Origin: a phage | Assembly: GCA_024911895.1 (NCBI GenBank) | Contig: GCA_024911895.1_3948.1 | DNA length: 64,000 nt | Direction: 5' to 3' (one strand) | Part shown: positions 1 to 44,487 of the stretch, one piece after another | Numbering within the stretch: position 1 is the first letter of the stretch | Layout of the letters: every line of letters begins with the position of its first letter | Position numbers and translations under genes: made by a program | Notes under the pieces: model-generated | Told to the model about the DNA's origin: nothing | The model's database searches: none | The model's input: the letters and a program-made list of their open reading frames with translations, nothing else

Positions 1-1050
1 AAAAAAATATCTGTCTAGGATGTATATCTGCTTGGTAGCCCTTAACATCTCCCTTACAAGTGCTTTGCAAAATTTTAAAATATCCTTAACAATCTCTTAA
101 CAGTTCTCACAAGCTCTTAACATCTCTTCAGAGGTCTTAACAGTTTCTTAACAGAACTAACAAGGGTGTAACAGTTTCTTAACAGTTGATACATAGACTT
201 TACAGAGTCTTAACAGATGACTAACAAGAGCTAACAAGTTAATTTTAAAGAGTTATTTTGTTAAGATAATTAACAAGTTCCTAACAAGTGTTTAACCTTT
301 TTAACAAGCTGTTAACATGGTCACTATCTCTTTTCTTATCGTTCCCTTTCCTTTCTTAGTGATTCTTTAAATAGCCCTTTTAAAAGCTCTGTATAGCTCT
401 GTATAGCCCCTTTTAAGTCTCTTCCTAGTAATTACACCCCAACTGTACAGACACCTCCTTATAGGGCTTTTCAGGAGCTTTAAAGGCTATGCCAAAGGCT
501 CTTACAAGGCTTTTACGTGGTTTTAACAGAGATTTAACAAGTTGCTAACAAGTGCCTTAAAAGCATAACTATTTAGGGATTGTTAAGAAATTGTTAAGAA
601 AATGTTAAGGGGGCTAGCATTTACGTAACTTTTAAGCTACTTTTAAGCAACTTTATAGCCCCTATAACATACTTTTAAGACACTAACAATAGGATTCGAT
701 AGATTCCTATCTCATAGCCCTTTTTAGTTATTCACAAGATACTAACGAGATAATAAAGCTTACACCCTTATAAGATTCTTTTAAGGCTCTGGGAAGCTTT
801 ATAAAGGGCTTTTAAGGGTGAGGTAATGCAATCCCTTAAGTTAGGTTGATAAGGCTGTTATAGGGCTTTATAGAGCGTTTAAATGGTTGCCCTTCCCTTT
901 CGGGTTATGGGCTTATATTTAAGTTGATTTGATAAAAGGCTATAGAGTAGACTATAGAGTTATTGCTTTTTAAGGTATGAGATAGATTCTGACTTGTTAG
1001 GGAGTCTTTAAGATTCTGGGAAGGGATTAGATAGACGTAAAAAAGCCCCT
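1..1050. repeat. ~1 kb AT-rich non-coding region packed with short direct and inverted repeats (TAACAG/TAACAAG iterons, CTCTGTATAG x2, CTATAGAGT x2, TTGTTAAGAAA-type x3, several CTTTTAAG)
   Basis: no ORF with a ribosome-binding site; about 16 copies of TAACA(G/A) between ~40 and ~320, many spaced 10-11 bp apart; inverted copies (TTGTTAAG) at ~581-612. Confidence 0.6.
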
Positions 1051-1101
1051 ATGATAAGGAGCTTTTCAGGTATCTGGGGCTATTTAGCCCCGCTGCGTCG
1101 A

Positions 1102-1350
1102 TTAGTTATAATCTTGCTTGTTGTAGTACAGGGAGACGATTTTTTCTCCCCAATAATGATAAGTATAACCATCCTTGAGAACTTCTTGTTTTGTTTCCTC
1201 CCAGAACTCATCCGAAGGATTATAATCTTTGATGGTCTGACTGATAAGACCTTTCACCATTTCAAAGGCGTTATCAGTACCTGCAATGTCAAATTTAACA
1301 TCCAGAGAGGAAAAACCGAACTCGTTAACAGTAGCGCGGATAGTTGCCAT
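1102..1350 (-). CDS. hypothetical early protein (82 aa)
   Basis: ORF whose ATG follows the conserved family-A leader (GGAG 8 nt upstream); no domain recognised. Confidence 0.55.
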   Translation of the reverse strand: MATIRATVNEFGFSSLDVKFDIAGTDNAFEMVKGLISQTIKDYNPSDEFWEETKQEVLKDGYTYHYWGEKIVSLYYNKQDYN

Positions 1351-1426
1351 TTTTGAATCTCCTAGTTTAAGGACTTTACTTAGTAGGGAGGTTATCCCTC
1401 CCGTTGATTAGTAATTTACTTGTTTT
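1351..1426 (-). repeat. family-A early cassette: hairpin GGGAGG..CCCTCCC plus conserved leader ending TAAACTAGGAGATTCAAAA-ATG
   Basis: near-identical ~80-bp unit also at 1912, 3134 and 4184, each directly upstream (minus strand) of a small ORF start codon. Confidence 0.7.
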
Positions 1427-1563
1427 GATATCTGATTGCAAGCAATTTTTTAAGCTTATCTATAAAGAATCTTTTAAGCTAATCCCTTTTAGATAAACCC
1501 CCTCGAACAAAGTTACCAATGTCAAGGGGTATTGTCAACACTTTTTAAAAAGTTTTTTGTAAG

Positions 1564-1911
1564 TTATTGATTAACTGATGAATATTTTTCAGGTTTTACA
1601 TAGCTGATACGCTGACTTTTTAGCAGGTCATCCCAGATTAACGCGGCGATATGGGCATAACCGGATTCACGTAAAAGTTTCATTGTTTTACTTCTCGTTT
1701 CAAAACGGCTTGCATAGTACTCACTATTCAGCGTCGTTTTATTCCCTTCGTTGTCTACATGGATAATCTGCATCACTTGAAAGGGGCTTGTGTCCTCGCC
1801 TTTGTTCCACTGCTCAAAGTATTTTAGGCACTGCATAGGTGACATCTTATCACTTACTTGAGTTGACCATGATGCGCCAGCTTTATCGGTAATTACGGTT
1901 ACATAAGCCAT
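1564..1911 (-). CDS. hypothetical early protein (115 aa)
   Basis: ATG directly after family-A cassette leader; no domain recognised. Confidence 0.55.
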   Translation of the reverse strand: MAYVTVITDKAGASWSTQVSDKMSPMQCLKYFEQWNKGEDTSPFQVMQIIHVDNEGNKTTLNSEYYASRFETRSKTMKLLRESGYAHIAALIWDDLLKSQRISYVKPEKYSSVNQ

Positions 1912-1985
1912 TTTTAGAATCTCCAGTTTAGGACTTTATTTAGTGGGGAAGGTCATTCCCTCCCCGTTGATTGACAATTTACAGA
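1912..1985 (-). repeat. family-A early cassette (hairpin GGGGAAGG..CCCTCCCC plus conserved RBS leader)
   Basis: sequence repeat shared with 1351, 3134, 4184; abuts the ATG of ORF 1564..1911. Confidence 0.7.
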
Positions 1986-2001
1986 TTTTTATCAGGCTTG
2001 T

Positions 2002-2235
2002 CTAGTCTTTTTCAATGATAATTTCATATTGACCGTCAACACTGTCGAAATAGATTCCATCGTCATCTTCTGTCTTAAAGTAGCATTGAATATCATCACT
2101 GGCGGGATAGTCTTGCCTTGCTATCTGGCAAACCTGAATAGCGTTTTCTTTACTCCCTGTAAACTCTTCAAGCCCTTTAAAATCGCATGAATGACCATTA
2201 CAAATTGAGAGGATAAGATAAATGGTTGTAAGCAT
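2002..2235 (-). CDS. hypothetical small Cys-containing protein (77 aa) with hydrophobic N-terminus, possibly secreted
   Basis: N-terminus MLTTIYLILSICNG; 4 Cys; preceded by hairpin 2253..2269 and AAGAGG RBS. Confidence 0.45.
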   Translation of the reverse strand: MLTTIYLILSICNGHSCDFKGLEEFTGSKENAIQVCQIARQDYPASDDIQCYFKTEDDDGIYFDSVDGQYEIIIEKD

Positions 2236-2301
2236 GATTTAAGCCTCTTAAAAGCCCCTGTGAGGGGCTAATCAGTGTTTATAAGGTGATTGCATAGGTT
2301 T

Positions 2302-2844
2302 TTAGAAAAAGCTTCTTAAATCTTTCTCTGTGATGTTTCCCGTTAATGTGTCCATGATGTCACAAAAAACCTGAATACTGTCCGACTGTTGAACACTTTT
2401 AACAAGTAGCTCTAATGTCTCCTCAAGATAGTTTAAATTTGGATTATCCAGTGAAGGAAGACAAAAAGGTGAAAACATTGCATTAAACTCGGTTACGTAA
2501 ACCTTTTTAATCCAATTTAAATCGAAGTATTCTGTAAAACTTGCTACGCCAGACATATTATCACAAGAATAATCATCATTTAGGTCATCCTCTGGGATAT
2601 CAAGTTCTAAGATAACAATATTTTGGGTTTTCATCTGGAAAGCTGCGGTGATAGCGGCATTACCTAGAGCCTGCTGGATACCTTCAGAGATTATTTCTTC
2701 CTCATCGTCGCCATAGATTTTATTTTCTGGATACACGTAAAAATTGCCGTCCATATCCGAACAATTCCATGCGCCTGATGGTTTATCACCGTTATTAATC
2801 AGGTTGAGGAAATTTTCTTGAGTAGTACCGTGAAAGCATTTCAT
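2302..2844 (-). CDS. hypothetical acidic early protein (180 aa)
   Basis: ATG after family-B leader; strongly acidic composition (runs of D/E). Confidence 0.55.
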   Translation of the reverse strand: MKCFHGTTQENFLNLINNGDKPSGAWNCSDMDGNFYVYPENKIYGDDEEEIISEGIQQALGNAAITAAFQMKTQNIVILELDIPEDDLNDDYSCDNMSGVASFTEYFDLNWIKKVYVTEFNAMFSPFCLPSLDNPNLNYLEETLELLVKSVQQSDSIQVFCDIMDTLTGNITEKDLRSFF

Positions 2845-2932
2845 TTTAGAATCTCCAGTTTAGGATTGAGTGGTAAAGCTCTTTATCTGGGGCTTACTTT
2901 ATCGAACTATAAGCCCCTTGTAAAGTACTTTA
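2845..2932 (-). repeat. family-B early cassette: hairpin GGGGCTTA..TAAGCCCC, palindrome AAAGTACTTT, leader ending AAACTGGAGATTCTAAA-ATG
   Basis: 88-bp unit essentially identical to 3642..3726 and 2 mismatches from 5845..5932; abuts the ATG of ORF 2302..2844. Confidence 0.7.
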
Positions 2933-3133
2933 TTAGTTATTTTTTACAACTTTTAAAACTGCAAGGTAACCTAAGCAATAAGAATCACCGAAAAGAGTCC
3001 TACCCATGAAAGAATCCTCTTTTATATCCTTTTCAGTGACGGTTTTTTCTACTCCGTGAAAAAGGACTATATCACCGACTTTGATATCTTTGATATGAGT
3101 AGTTTCAATGTTTAAACCGTTAATAATAGCCAT
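2933..3133 (-). CDS. hypothetical early protein (66 aa)
   Basis: ATG after family-A leader. Confidence 0.5.
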   Translation of the reverse strand: MAIINGLNIETTHIKDIKVGDIVLFHGVEKTVTEKDIKEDSFMGRTLFGDSYCLGYLAVLKVVKNN

Positions 3134-3212
3134 TTTTGAATCTCCTAGTTTAAGGACTTTACTTAGTGGGGAAGGTCATTCCCTCCCCGTTGATTAGTAA
3201 TTTACTTGTTTT
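3134..3212 (-). repeat. family-A early cassette; minus-strand TTGACA-18bp-TAAATT promoter-like element at 3199..3228
   Basis: repeat family shared with 1351, 1912, 4184; abuts the ATG of ORF 2933..3133. Confidence 0.65.
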
Positions 3213-3236
3213 AAAAACCAGTGTCAACAAAATTTT

Positions 3237-3641
3237 TCAGAGTTCTGCATAAATTGCATCGCAGACATCACGAAAATCATGATTTGTTAAATTACGTTGC
3301 AACCATGTTGCGAAAAAGTCAGCGATTGCAAAATTTGCGTCATACTCAACAGATAGCCACACTTTAACAGCAAAACGAAACATTTTTAAATCAAGCTCTT
3401 TATTCATTACCTTAGATTTGCCTAACATGTCAGACATCTCATGTTGTGCACCGTCTAGCGTGATACCTGCTGCAACGTCAGCCAGTGAGTTTTTTACGTT
3501 TTCAACGTCTAAGATAACACTTTGAATCTTCCCAATAATGTTTTGCAGTGTTTCGTCTGGCGCTGATGATGTGATAACATTAATCCGGTTAACGGTCAAA
3601 CGTGCTTTTAAGATTGATAACTCACGGTTATTAATAGCCAT
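3237..3641 (-). CDS. hypothetical early protein (134 aa)
   Basis: ATG after family-B leader. Confidence 0.55.
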   Translation of the reverse strand: MAINNRELSILKARLTVNRINVITSSAPDETLQNIIGKIQSVILDVENVKNSLADVAAGITLDGAQHEMSDMLGKSKVMNKELDLKMFRFAVKVWLSVEYDANFAIADFFATWLQRNLTNHDFRDVCDAIYAEL

Positions 3642-3726
3642 TTTAGAATCTCCAGTTTAGGATTGAGTGGTAAAGCTCTTTATCTGGGGCTTACTTTATC
3701 GAACTATAAGCCCCTTGTAAAGTACT
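3642..3726 (-). repeat. family-B early cassette
   Basis: identical to 2845..2932 over ~88 bp; abuts the ATG of ORF 3237..3641. Confidence 0.7.
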
Positions 3727-3999
3727 TTATGCTAAGTGTAATTTTTTACCTTTTACCATGATGTAACTTGATGCGTTATTACTGCATACATCTTGATAAA
3801 TTCTGCGCAAACGTCCTTCGTAGTATACTTTCCAGCTAGTTGGAATCTTTTTCCCGTATCCTGTAGCAGTTTTTTGCAGTCCTGCAAGTTGCCAATCCAG
3901 AATATGTTGTTCAGCTTGTAAATCCTCGAAGTGCATTACACCGTTCACATAGTGGCGTAGGGTTATGTTTAAAGTGCGACCGTTGTTAGTAGTGTACAT
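3727..3999 (-). CDS. hypothetical early protein (90 aa); start moved from the GTG at 4041 in the ORF track to the ATG at 3999
   Basis: ATG at 3999 is preceded by CTAGGAGCTTTTAAA, the conserved leader/RBS; position 4041 is GTG. Confidence 0.5.
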   Translation of the reverse strand: MYTTNNGRTLNITLRHYVNGVMHFEDLQAEQHILDWQLAGLQKTATGYGKKIPTSWKVYYEGRLRRIYQDVCSNNASSYIMVKGKKLHLA

Positions 4000-4024
4000 T
4001 TTAAAAGCTCCTAGTTTAAGGATT

Positions 4025-4183
4025 TTATTTTGACAATTCACTAATTAAGACATCAAAGATTATATCATTATCTGCTACAGTTGCAACACCAGTGATATAA
4101 TCAATTTCTAAGATAACAACAACTTTCGTACATAAACCATCATCTATATCATTCCAGACAACTTTATCACCTGCACAAAACAT
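4025..4183 (-). CDS. hypothetical small acidic protein (52 aa), below the ORF-track size cutoff
   Basis: own translation: MFCAGDKVVWNDIDDGLCTKVVVILEIDYITGVATVADNDIIFDVLISELSK; ATG directly after family-A cassette leader. Confidence 0.5.
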   Translation of the reverse strand: MFCAGDKVVWNDIDDGLCTKVVVILEIDYITGVATVADNDIIFDVLISELSK

Positions 4184-4264
4184 TTTTGAATCTCCTAGTT
4201 TAAGGACTTTACTTAGTGGGGGAAGCTCATTCCCTCCCCGTTGATTAGTAATTTACTTGTTTTA
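4184..4264 (-). repeat. family-A early cassette
   Basis: repeat family shared with 1351, 1912, 3134; abuts the ATG of small ORF 4025..4183. Confidence 0.65.
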
Positions 4265-4274
4265 AAAACCAAAA

Positions 4275-4607
4275 TCAAGATGAATTTTTTCGTTTGCTCA
4301 ATTCTTGAACTATTACAGCATGATAATCTTTTAAATCACTGATATTTAAAGCATTTATCAGAGAGTTATAATCATCGACAAGCTGAAAATCATCTTTGAA
4401 AATGTCGCTGATTTGATAAGTTTTTGATTGAAATCTGAAGCTCATTTCTAACCGTTTTATTTGTTCATCGCTTAAACGCTCCAGAAAGCTCATTACAAGG
4501 TTATTATTGACCTGCTGCGTGATTGCCTTACTTGCCAAATTATATGCGCTATAAGCCTTGTAAAGTGCTATAATGGCAATGATTGCAGTGATACCCATCA
4601 TTAACAT
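4275..4607 (-). CDS. hypothetical membrane protein (110 aa, N-terminal TM helix)
   Basis: N-terminal hydrophobic segment GITAIIAIIALY; RBS AAGAGGAAG; overlaps the stop of the upstream gene (coupled). Confidence 0.5.
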   Translation of the reverse strand: MLMMGITAIIAIIALYKAYSAYNLASKAITQQVNNNLVMSFLERLSDEQIKRLEMSFRFQSKTYQISDIFKDDFQLVDDYNSLINALNISDLKDYHAVIVQELSKRKNSS

Positions 4608-4897
4608 GGTGCTTCCTCTTTACGTGATACCTTGCCATTTACAGTTATCTCATAAGATTCTAATAAATCGCTTTTAGACTTTACAGGGCTTTTAAAAGTA
4701 TCATCATAGATATTGACTTGTAATACAGGTTTTTTATATTCCCTGCAACTATTCCATAAGCAAATCACTACACGACGGCCTTTGATTTTTCCGTGTAACC
4801 ATTCCATAACATCATGACTATTCCTTGATGTTTCAATGAAATCAATTTTATTAAGTAATTTGCTTAGATTTTCACGGACTTTATTTGATAGTTTCAT
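4601..4897 (-). CDS. hypothetical early protein (98 aa)
   Basis: ATG after family-B-like leader. Confidence 0.5.
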   Translation of the reverse strand: MKLSNKVRENLSKLLNKIDFIETSRNSHDVMEWLHGKIKGRRVVICLWNSCREYKKPVLQVNIYDDTFKSPVKSKSDLLESYEITVNGKVSRKEEAPC

Positions 4898-4984
4898 TTT
4901 TGAATCTACAGTTTAGGACAGTTGATAAATCTCTTTATCTGGGGCTATCTTATCAGCTTGATAACCCCGTGTAAAGAGGTCTAT
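4898..4984 (-). repeat. family-B-like early cassette (variant hairpin GGGGCTATC..GATAACCCC)
   Basis: conserved leader TTTTTGAATCTACAGTTTAGGA and hairpin; abuts the ATG of ORF 4601..4897. Confidence 0.6.
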
Positions 4985-5497
4985 TTAGTCCTTAAAGATA
5001 TTCATCACTGAATCTTTTAATGCTTCCAAGCGTTCTAATACTTCAGATTCTGCGTCTGCGTTGTTCACTTCCTCTTTTAGCCTGTCATCTAAATCATCGC
5101 CGTCACTATAACACCAATCAAAAGCGTAACCAATATAAAAACTGTCTAAAATTGTTTGACCATTTGCATCGACAACTTTCGCGGCAAGGTTGTATTCTGA
5201 AGCCTCTAAATCTCTTTCTAGTTCTTTCTGTAAGCTGATGTAAGCCTCTCTTGATGGATTTTCCCGGCCTTGTTTTGCATAGTCACTTGAAAGCTGTTTA
5301 AGGCTGTAATGTAAAGGGATTGCATATTTAAATTCATTACGCTGACAGTTGGGGTTTTTAATAGTCACGCCGCCATGATGAGTGTCTGTAAACTCCCAAT
5401 TATCAAGATTATGGCTTGCTTCAAAGCAATTAACAGCTTCGTAAATGATGGAAAATTTTTCTTTTACAACTTCAAAGGTAGCTTCTACAGTTTTCAT
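4985..5497 (-). CDS. hypothetical acidic early protein (170 aa)
   Basis: ATG after family-B leader; D/E-rich. Confidence 0.55.
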   Translation of the reverse strand: MKTVEATFEVVKEKFSIIYEAVNCFEASHNLDNWEFTDTHHGGVTIKNPNCQRNEFKYAIPLHYSLKQLSSDYAKQGRENPSREAYISLQKELERDLEASEYNLAAKVVDANGQTILDSFYIGYAFDWCYSDGDDLDDRLKEEVNNADAESEVLERLEALKDSVMNIFKD

Positions 5498-5586
5498 TTT
5501 TGAATCTCCAGTTTAGGATTAATGTGGTAAAGCTCTTTATCTGGGGCTTAAGATATCAACTTTTAAGCCCCCTGTAAAGTACTTTA
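5498..5586 (-). repeat. family-B early cassette (hairpin GGGGCTTAA..TTAAGCCCC)
   Basis: close copy of 6314..6401; abuts the ATG of ORF 4985..5497. Confidence 0.7.
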
Positions 5587-5844
5587 TCAGATTAAATTGC
5601 CAGTTAATGATAAGTGCATTTTATAGCCTTTTTTGGTAAACACGTTCACTTTACCGAGTGATTTTACACCTTTAAAAAGATTGTTTGAACTGCGTTTTAA
5701 GGTTAGTTGTTTATCAGCCTTCACGCCCCATCTTACAGCAGATGGTTTTCCGTTGTCAACAACTTTCCCGCCTAACTTTTTCGCCATGATGCGAGCGTCA
5801 TCGCGAGTTTTTGCAGTAATTACAACGTTTTTGATAATAGCCAT
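5587..5844 (-). CDS. hypothetical basic early protein (85 aa)
   Basis: ATG after family-B leader; K/R-rich. Confidence 0.5.
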   Translation of the reverse strand: MAIIKNVVITAKTRDDARIMAKKLGGKVVDNGKPSAVRWGVKADKQLTLKRSSNNLFKGVKSLGKVNVFTKKGYKMHLSLTGNLI

Positions 5845-5932
5845 TTTAGAATCTCCAATTTAGGATTTAGTGGTAAAGCTCTTTATCTGGGGCTTACTTT
5901 ATCGAACTATAAGCCCCTTGTAAAGTACTTTA
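5845..5932 (-). repeat. family-B early cassette
   Basis: 2 mismatches from 2845..2932; abuts the ATG of ORF 5587..5844. Confidence 0.7.
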
Positions 5933-6313
5933 TCAGTTAATTTTGAAAATTGTCACATAACCATCACTACCGATTATTTGAGATACTCCAGCTTTTTCTA
6001 CATGATAGCCCATATTTTCAAGATGGTAAACAGCATCATCGTAACCATATGCGCCACCCTGATAACGTCTCTTATCGCATCTTATCAGGTTTTTACCACG
6101 TCCTGCAAGTGCATTCAGTACAGCTTTTTCACTTGATAGCGTACCATCTAACATGGTTGCCGTGTAATGGTTGATTTTATTCCCGTTAATATCATACTTA
6201 AAATTGAATGCGTGAACAACAATCAATTTGCCGTTAAATTTTTCATCAAGTGACTTCTCCAGTGCGTTGCGGAAGTTGTCTTTGTTGATGAATTTCGGTG
6301 CACGATAAGCCAT
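5933..6313 (-). CDS. hypothetical early protein (126 aa)
   Basis: ATG after family-A-type leader (TAAACTAGGAGATTCAAAA). Confidence 0.55.
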   Translation of the reverse strand: MAYRAPKFINKDNFRNALEKSLDEKFNGKLIVVHAFNFKYDINGNKINHYTATMLDGTLSSEKAVLNALAGRGKNLIRCDKRRYQGGAYGYDDAVYHLENMGYHVEKAGVSQIIGSDGYVTIFKIN

Positions 6314-6401
6314 TTTTGAATCTCCTAGTTTAAGGGTTAATTTAGTAAAGCTCTTTATCTGGGGCTTAAGATATCAACTTTTAAACCCCCTGTAAAGTAC
6401 T
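6314..6401 (-). repeat. family-B early cassette
   Basis: close copy of 5498..5586; abuts the ATG of ORF 5933..6313. Confidence 0.7.
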
Positions 6402-6623
6402 TTATTTGTCGTAGTAGTAAATCGCTGTCTGCCTTGTAAATTTCTTAGTGTTTCTTGTAAGGTAGCAATTAGAATTAATAGCCGTTTCTACATAGTTGCA
6501 ATAGTCGGCTTCTGATATTCTGGACCATACGCCACAGATTTGCATGTAAAAACGTTTTGCCTTTGTGTGAATGTTAGTTGTAACCATCAATTCGCGACTG
6601 TATATCATTATTTCGCGCTCCAT
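6402..6623 (-). CDS. hypothetical early protein (73 aa)
   Basis: ORF overlapping the end of 6608..6796 (translational coupling). Confidence 0.4.
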   Translation of the reverse strand: MEREIMIYSRELMVTTNIHTKAKRFYMQICGVWSRISEADYCNYVETAINSNCYLTRNTKKFTRQTAIYYYDK

Positions 6624-6796
6624 TTCTCAAAGAGTTCAGCAGGGAAACGTTCGCTATAACCTTTTAAGGAAAAAGTGTTATCTTCGTGGATAGCTTCCAC
6701 CTGATAAACCTTATAAGAGCGTATAGTTAGCATTTTGTAAGAGTATTCGTGCTTGATGTTAACCTCATCACCAACTTTAATCTTTCTTGATGCCAT
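6608..6796 (-). CDS. hypothetical early protein (62 aa), first gene downstream of the 6847..6875 promoter
   Basis: ATG after leader AAACTGGAGATTCAAAAA. Confidence 0.5.
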   Translation of the reverse strand: MASRKIKVGDEVNIKHEYSYKMLTIRSYKVYQVEAIHEDNTFSLKGYSERFPAELFEKWSAK

Positions 6797-6846
6797 TTTT
6801 TGAATCTCCAGTTTAGGAAGTGGGCTTGATTGCCCGTCTGATGCAA

Positions 6847-6875
6847 ATATTAGATAACTATACTCAAAGAGTCAA
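6847..6875 (-). promoter_or_regulatory. sigma70-like promoter (minus strand TTGACT-17bp-TAATAT) heading the leftward early cluster
   Basis: -35 at 6870..6875 and -10 at 6847..6852 read on the minus strand; 17-bp spacer; ~50 nt upstream of the ATG of ORF 6608..6796. Confidence 0.5.
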
Positions 6876-7050
6876 TAGGAATTTTAAAAATATTTTTTGC
6901 AAAAATTGTAATGAAACGGGTGCGCGCGACTACCACAAAACAGAACTACAATCAAGAATTATTTTTCAATCCGCTACAAATTTTTCTGTTGACTTTTATT
7001 TCCAGATGTGGTAGCCTTGTGAGAAATGGCGACATCCCCACCTGCACCCA

Positions 7051-7240
7051 CCTACCTGCACAATTCTAAAATGATTTTTCTTGCCAGACCTGATTTTTCT
7101 CTGCACGTTTTGAAAATGAAAAAGCTCTTTGGAGATTACCTGCACAGTTTGAAAATGAATTTTCTCTTTGGAGTTCAAAATTATCTCTACAGATTTCTCT
7201 ACAGAACTCTACCTGCACAATCCTGAAATGAAAAAGCCCT
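7051..7240. repeat. four direct repeats, core CTGCACa(a/g)tt(c/t)TGAAAATGA, at ~7051, 7099, 7136 and 7209 in a 500-bp intergenic region
   Basis: read directly; variable spacing 37-73 bp; no coding support (the plus ORF 7026..7226 is judged spurious). Confidence 0.6.
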
Positions 7241-7304
7241 CCTTACCTGAAAAATTTACCAGATAAGAAAGGCTTAGTCTATTGTGAATATACTACGAAG
7301 TTTC

Positions 7305-8090
7305 TTAGTTCTTTGCGTCTAAGAAGGTAAGCTCTGGTGAAGAGAAAACCGTCTCGATATCCTCATCAGTTCTTGCATAGATGTAAGCATCTGCATCACT
7401 GCCAAATGTTACTGCAATCCTGTGATTGCTCTTCGACAGGTGGGTAACTAGAGCGTTACTTAGAGACATCTTTTCAACCGGAGGGTTACTTTGATGTATC
7501 TTACCTTTTCTACGTCTGAAGAGGGTAACTGCATTATCTGTGAAAACTGCTACACCTGCAAAATATTCTGGTTCACAATAGTTCTTCCAACCTGAGCGTA
7601 ACTTATGGTACATTTCACCTTCATAGACATATAGGTAAACATCTACACTCTTCATCACCTGATTGATGATAACTGTGACGGCTTGAGGGTCCAGTCCACC
7701 GATACCTGCACCAATCATAGGTAACCCAACTTTCTTCAACTGATTCACTTCACAGTATCTGTTAAGCTGTTTCAAAGATGACTCTAAAGCACTGTATCGG
7801 GCATCTTTACCAGTCTTAAGCTGAGTGTAAAGGTTAGCTATACGGCCTTGTTTTAAACGTGCTACAGAGAAATTGCCTAGTAAATTCTCACAGGGCTTGT
7901 GGCCTATTCCACCTGCATACAGATAAACTTCTGTATCAGTCTCATATGCTTTTGGGTAAAGTTTAGAAATCTTGTCAGCGATACCTGCACCCATTAAGTT
8001 CATACAGTTGCAACCGTGACCGATGACGTCAAACTTACCTTTATCAAATGCTGCAAAGATATCGCCATTGATGATTTTTACAATACCCAT
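7305..8090 (-). CDS. macro-domain protein (ADP-ribose binding/processing; TARG1/OARD1-like N-terminal domain) with ~110-aa C-terminal extension
   Basis: motifs GHGCNCMNLMGAGIA and LPMIGAGIGGLD match, from memory, the TARG1-type macro signatures (CRMGAGIA ... PRIGCGLDRL). Confidence 0.55.
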   Translation of the reverse strand: MGIVKIINGDIFAAFDKGKFDVIGHGCNCMNLMGAGIADKISKLYPKAYETDTEVYLYAGGIGHKPCENLLGNFSVARLKQGRIANLYTQLKTGKDARYSALESSLKQLNRYCEVNQLKKVGLPMIGAGIGGLDPQAVTVIINQVMKSVDVYLYVYEGEMYHKLRSGWKNYCEPEYFAGVAVFTDNAVTLFRRRKGKIHQSNPPVEKMSLSNALVTHLSKSNHRIAVTFGSDADAYIYARTDEDIETVFSSPELTFLDAKN

Positions 8091-8327
8091 TTAACATCTC
8101 TCCCAAGATTCTTTATCTTCTGAAGGTTTTACACGTTGTCCTTCGTGGTCTACCCAGATACATCCACAACCTTCACAGATTACTGGCATTGCATAGCCAG
8201 CTTTAAAGTCATCTTCAGTGATAAGACCTTTTAAGTCTCCTGTATCACGCCCGAACATTTCGATAGCACAATCTTTGCAGAAATCAGCCATGAATAATTG
8301 CCTCTTGAATGATGATGCCTTCGCCAC
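8091..8327 (-). CDS. hypothetical Cys-rich small protein (78 aa)
   Basis: CKDC ... CEGCGC cysteine pairs suggest a zinc-binding fold. Confidence 0.45.
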   Translation of the reverse strand: MAKASSFKRQLFMADFCKDCAIEMFGRDTGDLKGLITEDDFKAGYAMPVICEGCGCIWVDHEGQRVKPSEDKESWERC

Positions 8328-8517
8328 AGCGACTTTTGAAGTCTTCTAATGGTTCAGAGATGAAGCCGCGTAAACGGTCACTGAATTTACGTTTTAAACC
8401 CTTCTTATAAGTTAGCACATCTTCCCCTGCAAACGGGACGACTTCATCTCTCCCTATGAATACTGCTGAACGTACAATCTTGCGGGTCTTTTTATCTCTG
8501 GCTAGTATTACTTTCAT
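8284..8517 (-). CDS. hypothetical protein (77 aa)
   Basis: ORF in an operon-like array; no domain recognised. Confidence 0.4.
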   Translation of the reverse strand: MKVILARDKKTRKIVRSAVFIGRDEVVPFAGEDVLTYKKGLKRKFSDRLRGFISEPLEDFKSRCGEGIIIQEAIIHG

Positions 8518-11347: not shown

Positions 11348-11412
11348 TGGTTCTCCTGTTTAGTTTATCGTGACAACAATTATACAGCACTCTGCACAAA
11401 ATACAAATAAAA

Positions 11413-43982: not shown

Positions 43983-44195
43983 ATGGCTCTTAAAAAGTTA
44001 CATCCCAGAAGCGGTTATGGTAAGATAATTGATGATACAGATGGCTTTACAGTCTTTACAGTTATCTGTCAAGATGATTCACAGATTGAAAAGGCTCTTG
44101 ATGATTATCTTAATGATGAACGTGAAAAGGTCAGAGCTACAAACATAGACTCATTAATTGATACTTCACGTAAACGGAAGAAGAAAGATGAATGA
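43983..44195 (+). CDS. hypothetical protein (70 aa)
   Basis: ORF. Confidence 0.45.
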   Translation: MALKKLHPRSGYGKIIDDTDGFTVFTVICQDDSQIEKALDDYLNDEREKVRATNIDSLIDTSRKRKKKDE

Positions 44196-44487
44196 GGTTT
44201 TTGACCCTTATGCTCCACAAGATGATTGGGAGGCTGATAGAGAGGCTGAAATGGAGAGTTATATTTGTCCAATGGATGTAGACGAAATGAGAGACTTCGT
44301 TGCACATCGTTTTAAGAGAGAGATTAAATCCAGAGGTCTTTCTCAAGAGCAAGTCGCTAAAATTTGTGGTATCTCTCAAGCTCGTGTATCCAACATAATC
44401 CACCTCACTGGGAATGTCTCTCTTGAGTATATGTTGGAAGTGTGTGAAAAATTTGGTGTTAATTTCAATTTAAGGTTGGCAGATTAA
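44188..44487 (+). CDS. helix-turn-helix (XRE-like) DNA-binding protein; start at the ATG at 44188
   Basis: HTH segment LSQEQVAKICGISQARVSNII; GGAAGAAGAAAG upstream. Confidence 0.5.
   Translation: MNEVFDPYAPQDDWEADREAEMESYICPMDVDEMRDFVAHRFKREIKSRGLSQEQVAKICGISQARVSNIIHLTGNVSLEYMLEVCEKFGVNFNLRLAD

Follow-up and report, generated by a model that had tools for sequence, protein, structure and literature searches.

A conserved array of four direct repeats beside the macro-domain gene of a Felixounavirus genome: a putative protein-binding element and candidate replication origin

Four direct repeats in a single orientation were found in the intergenic gap downstream of the macro-domain gene of a Felix-O1-like phage. 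The array that they form probably serves as a set of cis-acting docking sites for a predicted sequence-specific DNA-binding protein. As to the job of the array, replication of the phage genome from an origin at this site was rated the most likely reading, although it is put forward tentatively; we infer protein binding, and above all origin function, from the sequence.

A megablast search with positions 6600-7500 of the window (the whole stretch of 64,000 nucleotides that was analysed) returned 224 phage records, nearly all of them Felixounavirus, with a top identity of 97%. Judged by this similarity, the window is a Felixounavirus genome (Felix-O1-like myoviruses, subfamily Ounavirinae). Zero blastn matches to the sequence were obtained in 5,426 E. 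coli genomes and 72,556 plasmids, and a host or plasmid origin of the array sequence was rejected on that basis. The coding density is about 90% in the Felix-O1 genome family (PMC3185647); the array sits in a 508-bp intergenic gap at 6797-7304.

The physical ends of the genome were located by comparison with related phages. The first 644 bases of Escherichia phage Ro111lw, when reverse-complemented, match window positions 3-614, and these window bases equal the Ro111lw terminal repeat of 613 bp. Window positions 63-145 are matched by both ends of the record for Hafnia phage SPARTY. The terminal repeats of Ro111lw (613 bp; PMC6454146) and SPARTY (439 bp; PMC8928762) were called by PhageTerm, by which the SPARTY record was also oriented, and the 608-bp terminal repeat of UAB_Phi87 was determined experimentally by Bal31 and run-off sequencing (PMC4837284). 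Taken together, the data from these three phages therefore indicate that the start of the window is the physical left end of the genome, and the repeats lie 7.05-7.23 kb from it. A packaging (pac/cos) site was rejected as the identity of the array, since the terminal repeat occupies window positions 3-614 and the array is about 6.4-7 kb away. The identical 1232-bp ends of BoyaciRG1, which have the array inside, were also considered as a terminal repeat; they are best read as an assembly overlap, because the PhageTerm-called ends of SPARTY lie elsewhere.

The minus strand carries all genes near the array, and the element is described in that orientation. The sequence-only reading had placed the repeats between the stop of the macro-domain gene and a sigma-70 promoter, and this was borne out, with a terminator on one side and the promoter on the other. 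The flanking features that it had named, i.e., the macro gene, the promoter TTGACT-17-TAATAT and the A/T palindromes at about 6885-6905, were also recovered. On the gene strand, the order is macro stop, terminator, four units, variable segment, AT-rich block, UP-like tract, promoter, and early genes. The features are:

7305-8090, minus strand: macro-domain gene (261 aa; Pfam Macro), directly upstream of the array in every lineage examined
7234-7275, minus strand: intrinsic terminator of the macro gene, a 17-pair stem followed by TTTCATTTCA
7213-7236, minus strand: repeat unit 1, core TCATTTCAGGATTGTGCA(G) running from 7231 to 7213, 32.5 bits
7164-7212, minus strand: gap between units 1 and 2 (73-nt spacing), with two copies of CTGTAGAG 11 nt apart
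7140-7163, minus strand: repeat unit 2, AAAAT followed by core TCATTTTCAAACTGTGCA(G), 35.4 bits
7101-7124, minus strand: repeat unit 3, CTTTT followed by core TCATTTTCAAAACGTGCA(G), 34.8 bits
7056-7079, minus strand: repeat unit 4, AAAAA followed by core TCATTTTAGAATTGTGCA(G), 32.0 bits
6998-7055, no strand assigned: hypervariable segment directly after the last repeat, differing even among close relatives
6950-6997, no strand assigned: second invariant non-coding block, AT-rich, AAAAGTCAACAGAAAAATTTGTAGCGGATTGAAAAATAATTCTTGATT as read on the minus strand
6847-6905, minus strand: sigma-70 early promoter region, with the -35 TTGACT at 6875-6870 and the -10 TAATAT at 6852-6847

The Rho-independent terminator of the macro gene is also annotated in KhF2 and XTG1, and its U-tract is at the same time the CTTTT found 5' of the unit 1 core (7236-7232). 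In most relatives, the counterpart of 6998-7055 is a C-rich tract on the gene strand, with a G-quadruplex motif on the plus strand; the tract is missing from the window's own clade. The 6950-6997 block is conserved in Felixounavirus, Suspvirus, and Mooglevirus. The early promoter region includes a UP-like A/T-rich tract at 6877-6905, and the promoter drives transcription away from the array and through the early genes of the left end, with a conserved 5' leader on its 3' side followed by about 14-18 small early genes up to the left end. The sites span 181-361 bp upstream of the -35 hexamer, the smaller figure being the distance to the end of the nearest core. The GC content is 0.22-0.33 across 6840-6990, its lowest part being the UP-like region of the promoter, and no repeated 13-mer-type motif was detected there.

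The four direct repeats that had been claimed were present, with plus-strand cores at 7056-7074, 7101-7119, 7140-7158, and 7213-7231. The starts first given for them (7051, 7099, 7136, and 7209) identified the right copies but included 2-5 flanking bases, and the consensus first given, CTGCACNNTTNTGAAAATGA, had to be replaced: it was one base too long and yielded zero matches even with 3 mismatches allowed. The actual core reads CTGCAC-N7-AAATGA on the plus strand and TCATTT-N7-GTGCA(G) on the gene strand, on which the 18-nt cores begin at 7231, 7158, 7119, and 7074, with spacings of 73, 39, and 45 nt. ACCTGCAC occurs in three copies only, the copy at 7101 reading TCTGCAC. When both strands were scanned, the exact pattern TCATTTNNNNNNNGTGCA gave 4 matches in 64 kb, all on one strand and within 176 bp; the chance expectation from shuffles was 0.07, and none of 100 shuffles reached 4. 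The four copies scored 32-35 bits with a position weight matrix derived from related phages, and the next best site in the window scored 10.3 bits versus a shuffle maximum of 10.1. The motif as a dispersed regulon was rejected, since the matrix scan of the window yielded nothing above shuffle level. For the approximately 22 kb outside the window, phage JLBYU32 (97% identical) was examined, and no additional copy was present. The array occurs at one locus, once per genome. The shorter word TGTGCAG is over-represented in the window (15 copies vs. about 5 expected), and its copies are otherwise intragenic.

The full unit exceeds the core and consists of a semi-conserved TCYRRMRRG (-14 to -6), 4-5 A/T bases, the core, G/T, and R. 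The 4-5 bases preceding TCATTT are an A-tract or a T-tract, depending on the unit. Such a swap would be equivalent for the shape of the DNA minor groove and not for RNA, and it points to recognition of double-stranded DNA. Within the 73-nt spacing between units 1 and 2, the two gap copies read CTCTACAG on the plus strand, at 7186-7193 and 7197-7204; this gap is the putative footprint of a decayed fifth unit, the counterpart of which is intact in Kolesnikvirus.

Conservation in related phages, on which the sequence-only reading had proposed that the repeats be judged, was strong, and the array was kept in all branches of Ounavirinae examined. A blastn search with the 508-bp gap returned 290 records, and the identity of the gap was 82-97% in Felixounavirus, 74-79% in Suspvirus, and 70-73% in Mooglevirus. 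In the Kolesnikvirus group (phages of Erwinia, Hafnia, and Salmonella), blastn aligned only window positions 7057-7159, i.e., the repeats themselves. In all four genera, the array lies on the gene strand; the macro-gene terminator directly precedes it, and a sigma-70 promoter follows at about 180-200 bp. The unit spacings are 73, 39, and 45 nt in both Felixounavirus and Suspvirus, 75, 41, and 45 nt in Mooglevirus, and 37, 37, and 39 nt for the four units of Kolesnikvirus; the copy number is three to five across all relatives compared, and the layout is essentially fixed within Felixounavirus (29 loci retrieved via the macro protein). A distant 88-kb lineage (L090/L104, L105), with a macro protein of only 148 aa, carries 4-5 units spaced 36-38 nt apart, again right after the macro gene. 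No array was found beside the gene in T4-like and other phages with macro homologues, and the pattern matches outside Ounavirinae were rejected as arrays, being coding repeats of the Ser-Phe-Ala-Asn-Gly-Ala type. Several metagenome contigs stop just past the array, presumably because assembly broke where the sequence is variable or repeated. One promoter cassette forms the end of both L104 and L105.

Among 42 array units from 10 genomes, 11 of the 18 core positions were invariant. The set compared also included promoter look-alikes, one each from four of the ten genomes, and the T/C variation at core position 2 is partly due to them. A 17-nt 5' flank, aggtctggcaagaaaaa, is identical in unit 4 of the window and unit 3 of Erwinia phage phiEa21-4, and these two units are therefore regarded as orthologous. 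Within the genus, 13 of 72 core columns and 22 of 109 spacer columns were variable, a difference that was not significant. Putative selection specifically on the cores is visible only between genera in these alignments: the macro proteins are 40-65% identical between genera, the cores are invariant, and the spacers can no longer be aligned. With the array conserved in related phages, a functional protein-binding DNA element is therefore well supported.

These comparisons bear on the reading of the array as a neutral relic, in which a tandem duplication of terminator-proximal sequence would have left functionless copies. Unit 1 overlaps the tail of the terminator, and spacers are as conserved as cores within the genus, as such a relic would have it; but the invariance of the cores across genera whose macro proteins have diverged so far and whose spacers are unalignable, together with the orthology of individual units across genera, leaves this reading the least probable of those weighed and close to refuted.

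The repeats had further been described as neither hairpins nor coding, and both statements held. The fold z-scores were +0.33 and +1.02, the alignment fold was -4.18 kcal/mol over 569 columns, and no inverted repeats were detected within or between units. A structured or known RNA was rejected as an identity, since either strand folded no better than shuffles, there was no covariation, and the Rfam search gave chance-level matches only and no RNA family. Open frames switch strand and phase between relatives, and spacings of 37, 41, and 73 nt, which are not multiples of three, break any reading frame; a protein-coding repeat was rejected, as no frame is conserved across relatives. A promoter or terminator in each unit was likewise rejected, the scan having returned nothing inside the units, just one terminator (7275-7234) and one promoter (6875-6847) beside them. 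The 6797-7304 gap contains no exact IHF consensus and no exact Chi site. In a comparison done by eye against consensus sites, no match covering both invariant blocks was seen for CRP, Fis, OmpR, sigma-54, Tus/Ter, dif, EcoKI, or CRISPR I-E/I-F.

The array might still act as RNA: transcribed by read-through or in antisense, the repeats would be bound by protein and could, for example, soak up a host RNA-binding protein. A plus-strand transcript would be C-rich, G-poor, and unstructured, and a weak promoter-like TTGACT-17-TAGCCT at 6990 points into the array. That plus-strand promoter, however, is not conserved in relatives, and on the gene strand the array sits behind a strong terminator. The lack of structure, covariation, and Rfam matches also weighs against action as RNA, and the A-tract/T-tract swap is hard to fit to a single RNA motif. 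We regard this reading as highly improbable.

Single copy, fixed polarity, and conservation across the subfamily would be most simply explained by an origin, a packaging site, or an entry site, and not by a regulon. In the origin reading, the ancestral array would have comprised five units with a period of about 37 bp, one of which decayed in Felixounavirus. An initiator, encoded by the phage or the host, would oligomerise on the same-orientation iterons, which would occupy a pocket free of transcription, with the terminator of the macro gene on one side and the next promoter on the other. At a distance of 181 bp, the strong early promoter would fire outward, and the negative supercoiling behind it would help to open the AT-rich stretch at 6877-6997. 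The architecture counted for an origin is that of a terminator, iterons, a GC-rich tract, a conserved AT-rich block, and a strong outward promoter. Phage arrays that have been tested (lambda ori, P1 oriR, T4 oriE, SPP1, and lactococcal phage origins) are mostly origins. Of the features that define an iteron origin, the repeats are the one that the array clearly displays, namely at least three direct repeats of about 17-22 bp in one orientation.

Several observations stand against an origin. The unit spacing of 37-45 bp is wider than the approximately 22 bp of classical iterons, and the replication genes are 30 kb away, and the divergent intergenic region next to them is no less plausible as an origin. 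The ten ORFs around the array encode only Macro and families of unknown function, with no initiator gene adjacent; the genome annotation names a polymerase, a primase/helicase, and a helicase loader, and lists no protein that binds an origin. GC skew showed no sign change at 7 kb and flipped only with gene direction, at about 37.5 and 46.5 kb, and the skew at third codon positions (GC3) showed no step at the array. Skew is a weak and uninformative test for an origin here, as it follows transcription. Literature searches on Ounavirinae returned no experimental replication data and nothing relevant on an origin, the transcriptome, or the repeats.

The idea put forward in the sequence-only reading, that the four sites bind a protein that acts as a transcriptional insulator or operator, was ranked second after the origin and judged possible, though on the doubtful side. 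As an insulator, the array would be a roadblock backing the macro-gene terminator and stopping the upstream operon from reading into the left-end early operon; as an operator, the bound protein would regulate the early promoter at 6875 from a distance. The array begins inside the T-tract of the terminator and ends 181 bp upstream of the promoter, a position that suits this idea, and the C-rich, rut-like tract that follows the array on the transcribed strand in most relatives would add Rho-dependent termination, but its absence from the window's own clade counts against this. The "transcriptional boundary" version remains a live rival.

Also in favor of this idea, a one-mismatch look-alike of the unit, TTATTTGTATTTTGTGCAG, overlaps the -35/spacer of the promoter of the upstream operon at 11393-11410 (minus strand); in three other lineages its TGTGCAG block is retained, with variation in the adjoining spacer bases. 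The look-alike nevertheless scored only 8 bits, under the shuffle maximum of 10.1, and it has no counterpart in Kolesnikvirus or the 88-kb lineage. The sites themselves, at 181-361 bp from the -35 hexamer, neither overlap nor adjoin the -35/-10 and are without dyad symmetry, and such sites are missing from the four or five further early promoters of this type in the left 7 kb. The phage does encode an XRE-type HTH protein (44158-44487), its one recognisable HTH regulator, which could be taken as a candidate regulator and is found in Felixounavirus, Suspvirus, and Mooglevirus, but tblastn detected none in the array-carrying Erwinia phages. On this distribution, which does not follow that of the array, the XRE HTH protein is probably not the binder.

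A polar barrier or another cis function at the DNA level, such as the trapping of replication forks close to the end of the genome or the marking of a recombination or module boundary, was considered improbable. The strictly conserved orientation agrees with a barrier, as does the left edge of the array, at which the hypervariable segment and the variable early-gene block exactly start, and the genes of the left end stand apart in their GC skew at third codon positions (-0.18). Yet the skew does not change at the array, where the three genes to the right are also negative, and neither a likeness to Ter or dif (by eye) nor an exact Chi in 6797-7304 was found.

The units were also compared with the DnaA box. 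In Kolesnikvirus, the units end, on the opposite strand, in YTATGCACR, which matches the DnaA box TTATNCACA at 8 of 9 positions, and 4-5 DnaA boxes with at most one mismatch lie inside 135 bp. The 88-kb lineage carries CTATCCACG, CTATGCACA, and CTATGCACG at the DnaA-like position, in partial agreement with a DnaA box. The units of Felixounavirus, Suspvirus, and Mooglevirus match at 6-7 of 9 positions; those of the window read ACCTGCACA or CTCTGCACG, matching at 6 of 9, and none comes within one mismatch of the box. DnaA-box likeness may be ancestral and may have been lost in the Felixounavirus/Suspvirus/Mooglevirus clade. The Kolesnikvirus match counts in favor of an origin, and its weakness in the window counts against one. 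DnaA-like ends would be compatible both with an origin and with the DnaA model that Davison put forward for the injection-stop signal (iss) of T5.

By analogy with the T5 iss, the array could be a DNA-entry stop or membrane anchor, provided that the left end enters first. The first 7 kb or so, with small early genes only, would enter, and a host protein, possibly DnaA, would hold the DNA until early proteins were made. In T5, the segment transferred in the first step makes up 7.9% of the genome, and the iss is a conserved non-coding repeat region whose DnaA boxes include TTATGCACA (10.1101/866236). In three phages of the present group, the array lies 5.9-8.1 kb from the physical left end, or about 7-9.5% of the genome; this similarity to T5, the YTATGCACR of the Kolesnikvirus units, and the presence of one element per genome in a fixed orientation favor an entry stop. 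The distance from the end differs between phages, however, and only 6-7 of 9 positions match the DnaA box in Felixounavirus, Suspvirus, and Mooglevirus. The array is also without the inverted repeats typical of the T5 iss, the DnaA model of the iss is itself unproven, and literature searches gave no report of two-step entry for Ounavirinae. An entry stop is therefore held to be very improbable. If true, it would extend staged DNA entry to a second, unrelated family, myoviruses with short terminal repeats.

Phages of the Felix O1 group are classic tools for typing Salmonella and now find wide use in biocontrol and therapy, and the array offers a small, concrete experimental target in their genomes. 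If the origin reading is true, the array defines the origin, which would be useful for phage engineering, for "Per"-type resistance from origin plasmids, and for the reading of coverage profiles; if it is not, the array would point to a new regulatory or entry checkpoint. The combination of macro-domain gene, terminator, and three to five copies of TCATTT-N7-GTGCA may also serve as a signature of Ounavirinae-like phages in metagenomes. The Felix O1 genome paper (2010) lists direct repeats of at least 24 bp only, so the array was missed, and it describes the temporal control of transcription as not understood (PMC3185647).

Among known systems, the iteron origins (lambda ori, P1 oriR, T4 oriE, SPP1 oriL/oriR, and lactococcal ori) resemble the array in having 3-5 same-orientation repeats of about 18-20 bp at a single non-coding locus, with an AT-rich stretch and an active promoter adjoining, and in being conserved above their surroundings. 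They differ in their spacing of about 22 bp, compared with 37-45 bp here, and the array comes without a recognised initiator gene or compositional switch. The primary origin of T7 is alike in that it is a promoter-bearing, AT-rich intergenic site in a linear genome with short exact terminal repeats. It lies about 15% from the left end, and the array, in the left tenth of its genome, resembles it in position. Unlike the array, it is devoid of iterons and relies on promoters for T7 RNA polymerase. An RNA polymerase gene is absent from Felix-O1-type phages (PMC3185647).

The T5 iss, like the array, consists of conserved non-coding repeats about 8% from the left end that are better kept than the neighbouring early genes, and it contains DnaA-box-like 9-mers, of which TTATGCACA is common to T5 and Kolesnikvirus (10.1101/866236). 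It is located, however, inside a 10-kb terminal repeat, extends over about 1.2 kb, and is dominated by inverted repeats and palindromes, whereas the array has direct repeats only and its DnaA-box likeness is weak in Felixounavirus. The stoperators of cluster A mycobacteriophages, which are asymmetric repressor sites that depend on orientation, and protein roadblock terminators are similarly non-palindromic, intergenic, and fixed in orientation relative to transcription, and they can stop elongating RNA polymerase. Stoperators bind the immunity repressor and are scattered by the dozens over temperate phage genomes; the array differs in that a virulent phage carries it as one cluster. No description of the array was found in the literature searched, and its kind is a familiar one, that of a conserved, iteron-like, putative protein-binding array.

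Two non-coding segments lie between the array of four direct repeats and the sigma-70 early promoter that fires toward the left-end early genes:

6950-6997, AT-rich non-coding block of 48 nt, invariant (AAAAGTCAACAGAAAAATTTGTAGCGGATTGAAAAATAATTCTTGATT read on the minus strand)
6998-7055, hypervariable segment directly after the last repeat, with counterparts in the relatives' loci L009, L004, L002 and L005

Within the genus, the AT-rich block was more conserved than the early promoter, and it was also retained in Suspvirus and Mooglevirus. The counterpart of the hypervariable segment in most relatives is a C-rich tract on the gene strand, yielding a canonical G-quadruplex motif on the plus strand (GGGGAGAGGGGGAGTAAGAGGGGGAGAGGGG). 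The window's own clade is instead G-rich on the gene strand (GGTAGGTGGGTGCAGGTGGGG), and a lone additional GTGCAGG half-site is located inside this G-rich segment at 7041-7047. A further short motif was found in the gap where a fifth repeat unit has decayed:

7186-7204, two copies of CTCTACAG, reading CTGTAGAG on the gene strand

The two copies are 11 nt apart, and TGTAG and TATAG motifs recur in relatives after the last unit and likewise in the terminal non-coding region.

A look-alike of the repeat core and a gene for an HTH protein were located elsewhere in the window:

11379-11410, minus strand, promoter of the operon ending at the macro-domain gene
44158-44487, plus strand, XRE/Cro-type HTH protein of 109 aa (Pfam HTH_3, E = 6e-10)

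At the operon promoter, TTATTTGTATTTTGTGCAGAGTGCTGTATAAT lies downstream of a terminator hairpin, and the look-alike, which has one mismatch, covers the -35 element and the spacer. Its TGTGCAG block was kept in three other lineages, with variable flanking spacer bases; the match scored 8 bits, which is below chance level. The XRE/Cro-type HTH gene sits inside the replication and nucleotide-metabolism module. The protein was found in Felixounavirus, Suspvirus and Mooglevirus, and was not detected by tblastn in the Erwinia Kolesnikvirus.

The left end of the window, inspected over nucleotides 1-700, carries a second motif-rich element, which has a resembling stretch in a distant lineage:

~3-614, terminal repeat with dense TAACA(A/G) motifs
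L090 1-1170 / L104 10445-11616, and L105, distant Ounavirinae-like lineage (IMG/VR contigs of 88,375 and 84,893 nt)

On the plus strand, 17 TAACA(A/G) motifs were counted within the first 700 nt versus 73 over the entire 64 kb. In the terminal repeat they occur mainly in CTTAACAG or CTAACAAG forms, and the spacing between many of them is exactly 11 nt, or one helical turn. No ORF of at least 60 aa was present within the first ~1100 nt. The cluster is likely a terminase or end-processing recognition array. The distant lineage has a repeat array of the GTGCATAGG type, directly followed by ~190 nt rich in TTAACA motifs (for example, TTATTAACA, TTTTTAACA and TCATTCACA), a stretch similar to the TAACA-rich terminal repeat at the window start. 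In that lineage, the repeat array and the TAACA-type element may lie next to each other. Both record ends of Erwinia phage BoyaciRG1 (OR125561.1) share 1232 identical bp, beginning inside the macro-domain gene and including the entire repeat array. Because the PhageTerm-called ends of the related phage SPARTY are ~8 kb from this stretch, the duplication probably arose from overlap in the assembly and is unlikely to be a genuine terminal repeat.

Pooled GC3 skew on the coding strand was -0.18 (C>G at third codon positions) for the small left-end early genes (minus-strand genes, window 1100-8500) and climbed from about 0 to +0.11 rightward of ~8.5 kb; the change did not coincide with the position of the array. 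The left-end early region also contains two families of near-identical intergenic cassettes between genes:

2845-2932, 3642-3726, 4898-4984, 5498-5586, 5845-5932 and 6314-6401, intergenic cassettes, set 1
1357-1563, 1912-2001, 3134-3236 and 4042-4130, intergenic cassettes, set 2

The hairpin family reads AAAGTACTTTACAAGGGGCTTA...TAAGCCCC...TCCTAAACTGGAGATTCAAAAATG, and the promoter family consists of TTGACA...TAAATT followed by a leader hairpin, GGGGAGGG...CCTTCCCC. Conservation of the cassettes was 75-84% even against Hafnia phage SPARTY. The Felix O1 paper (PMC3185647) lists repeats of 57 bp and 39 bp, to which the cassettes probably correspond. The cassettes are reminiscent of the promoter-early-stem-loop cassettes of T4-type phages, which shuffle early genes.
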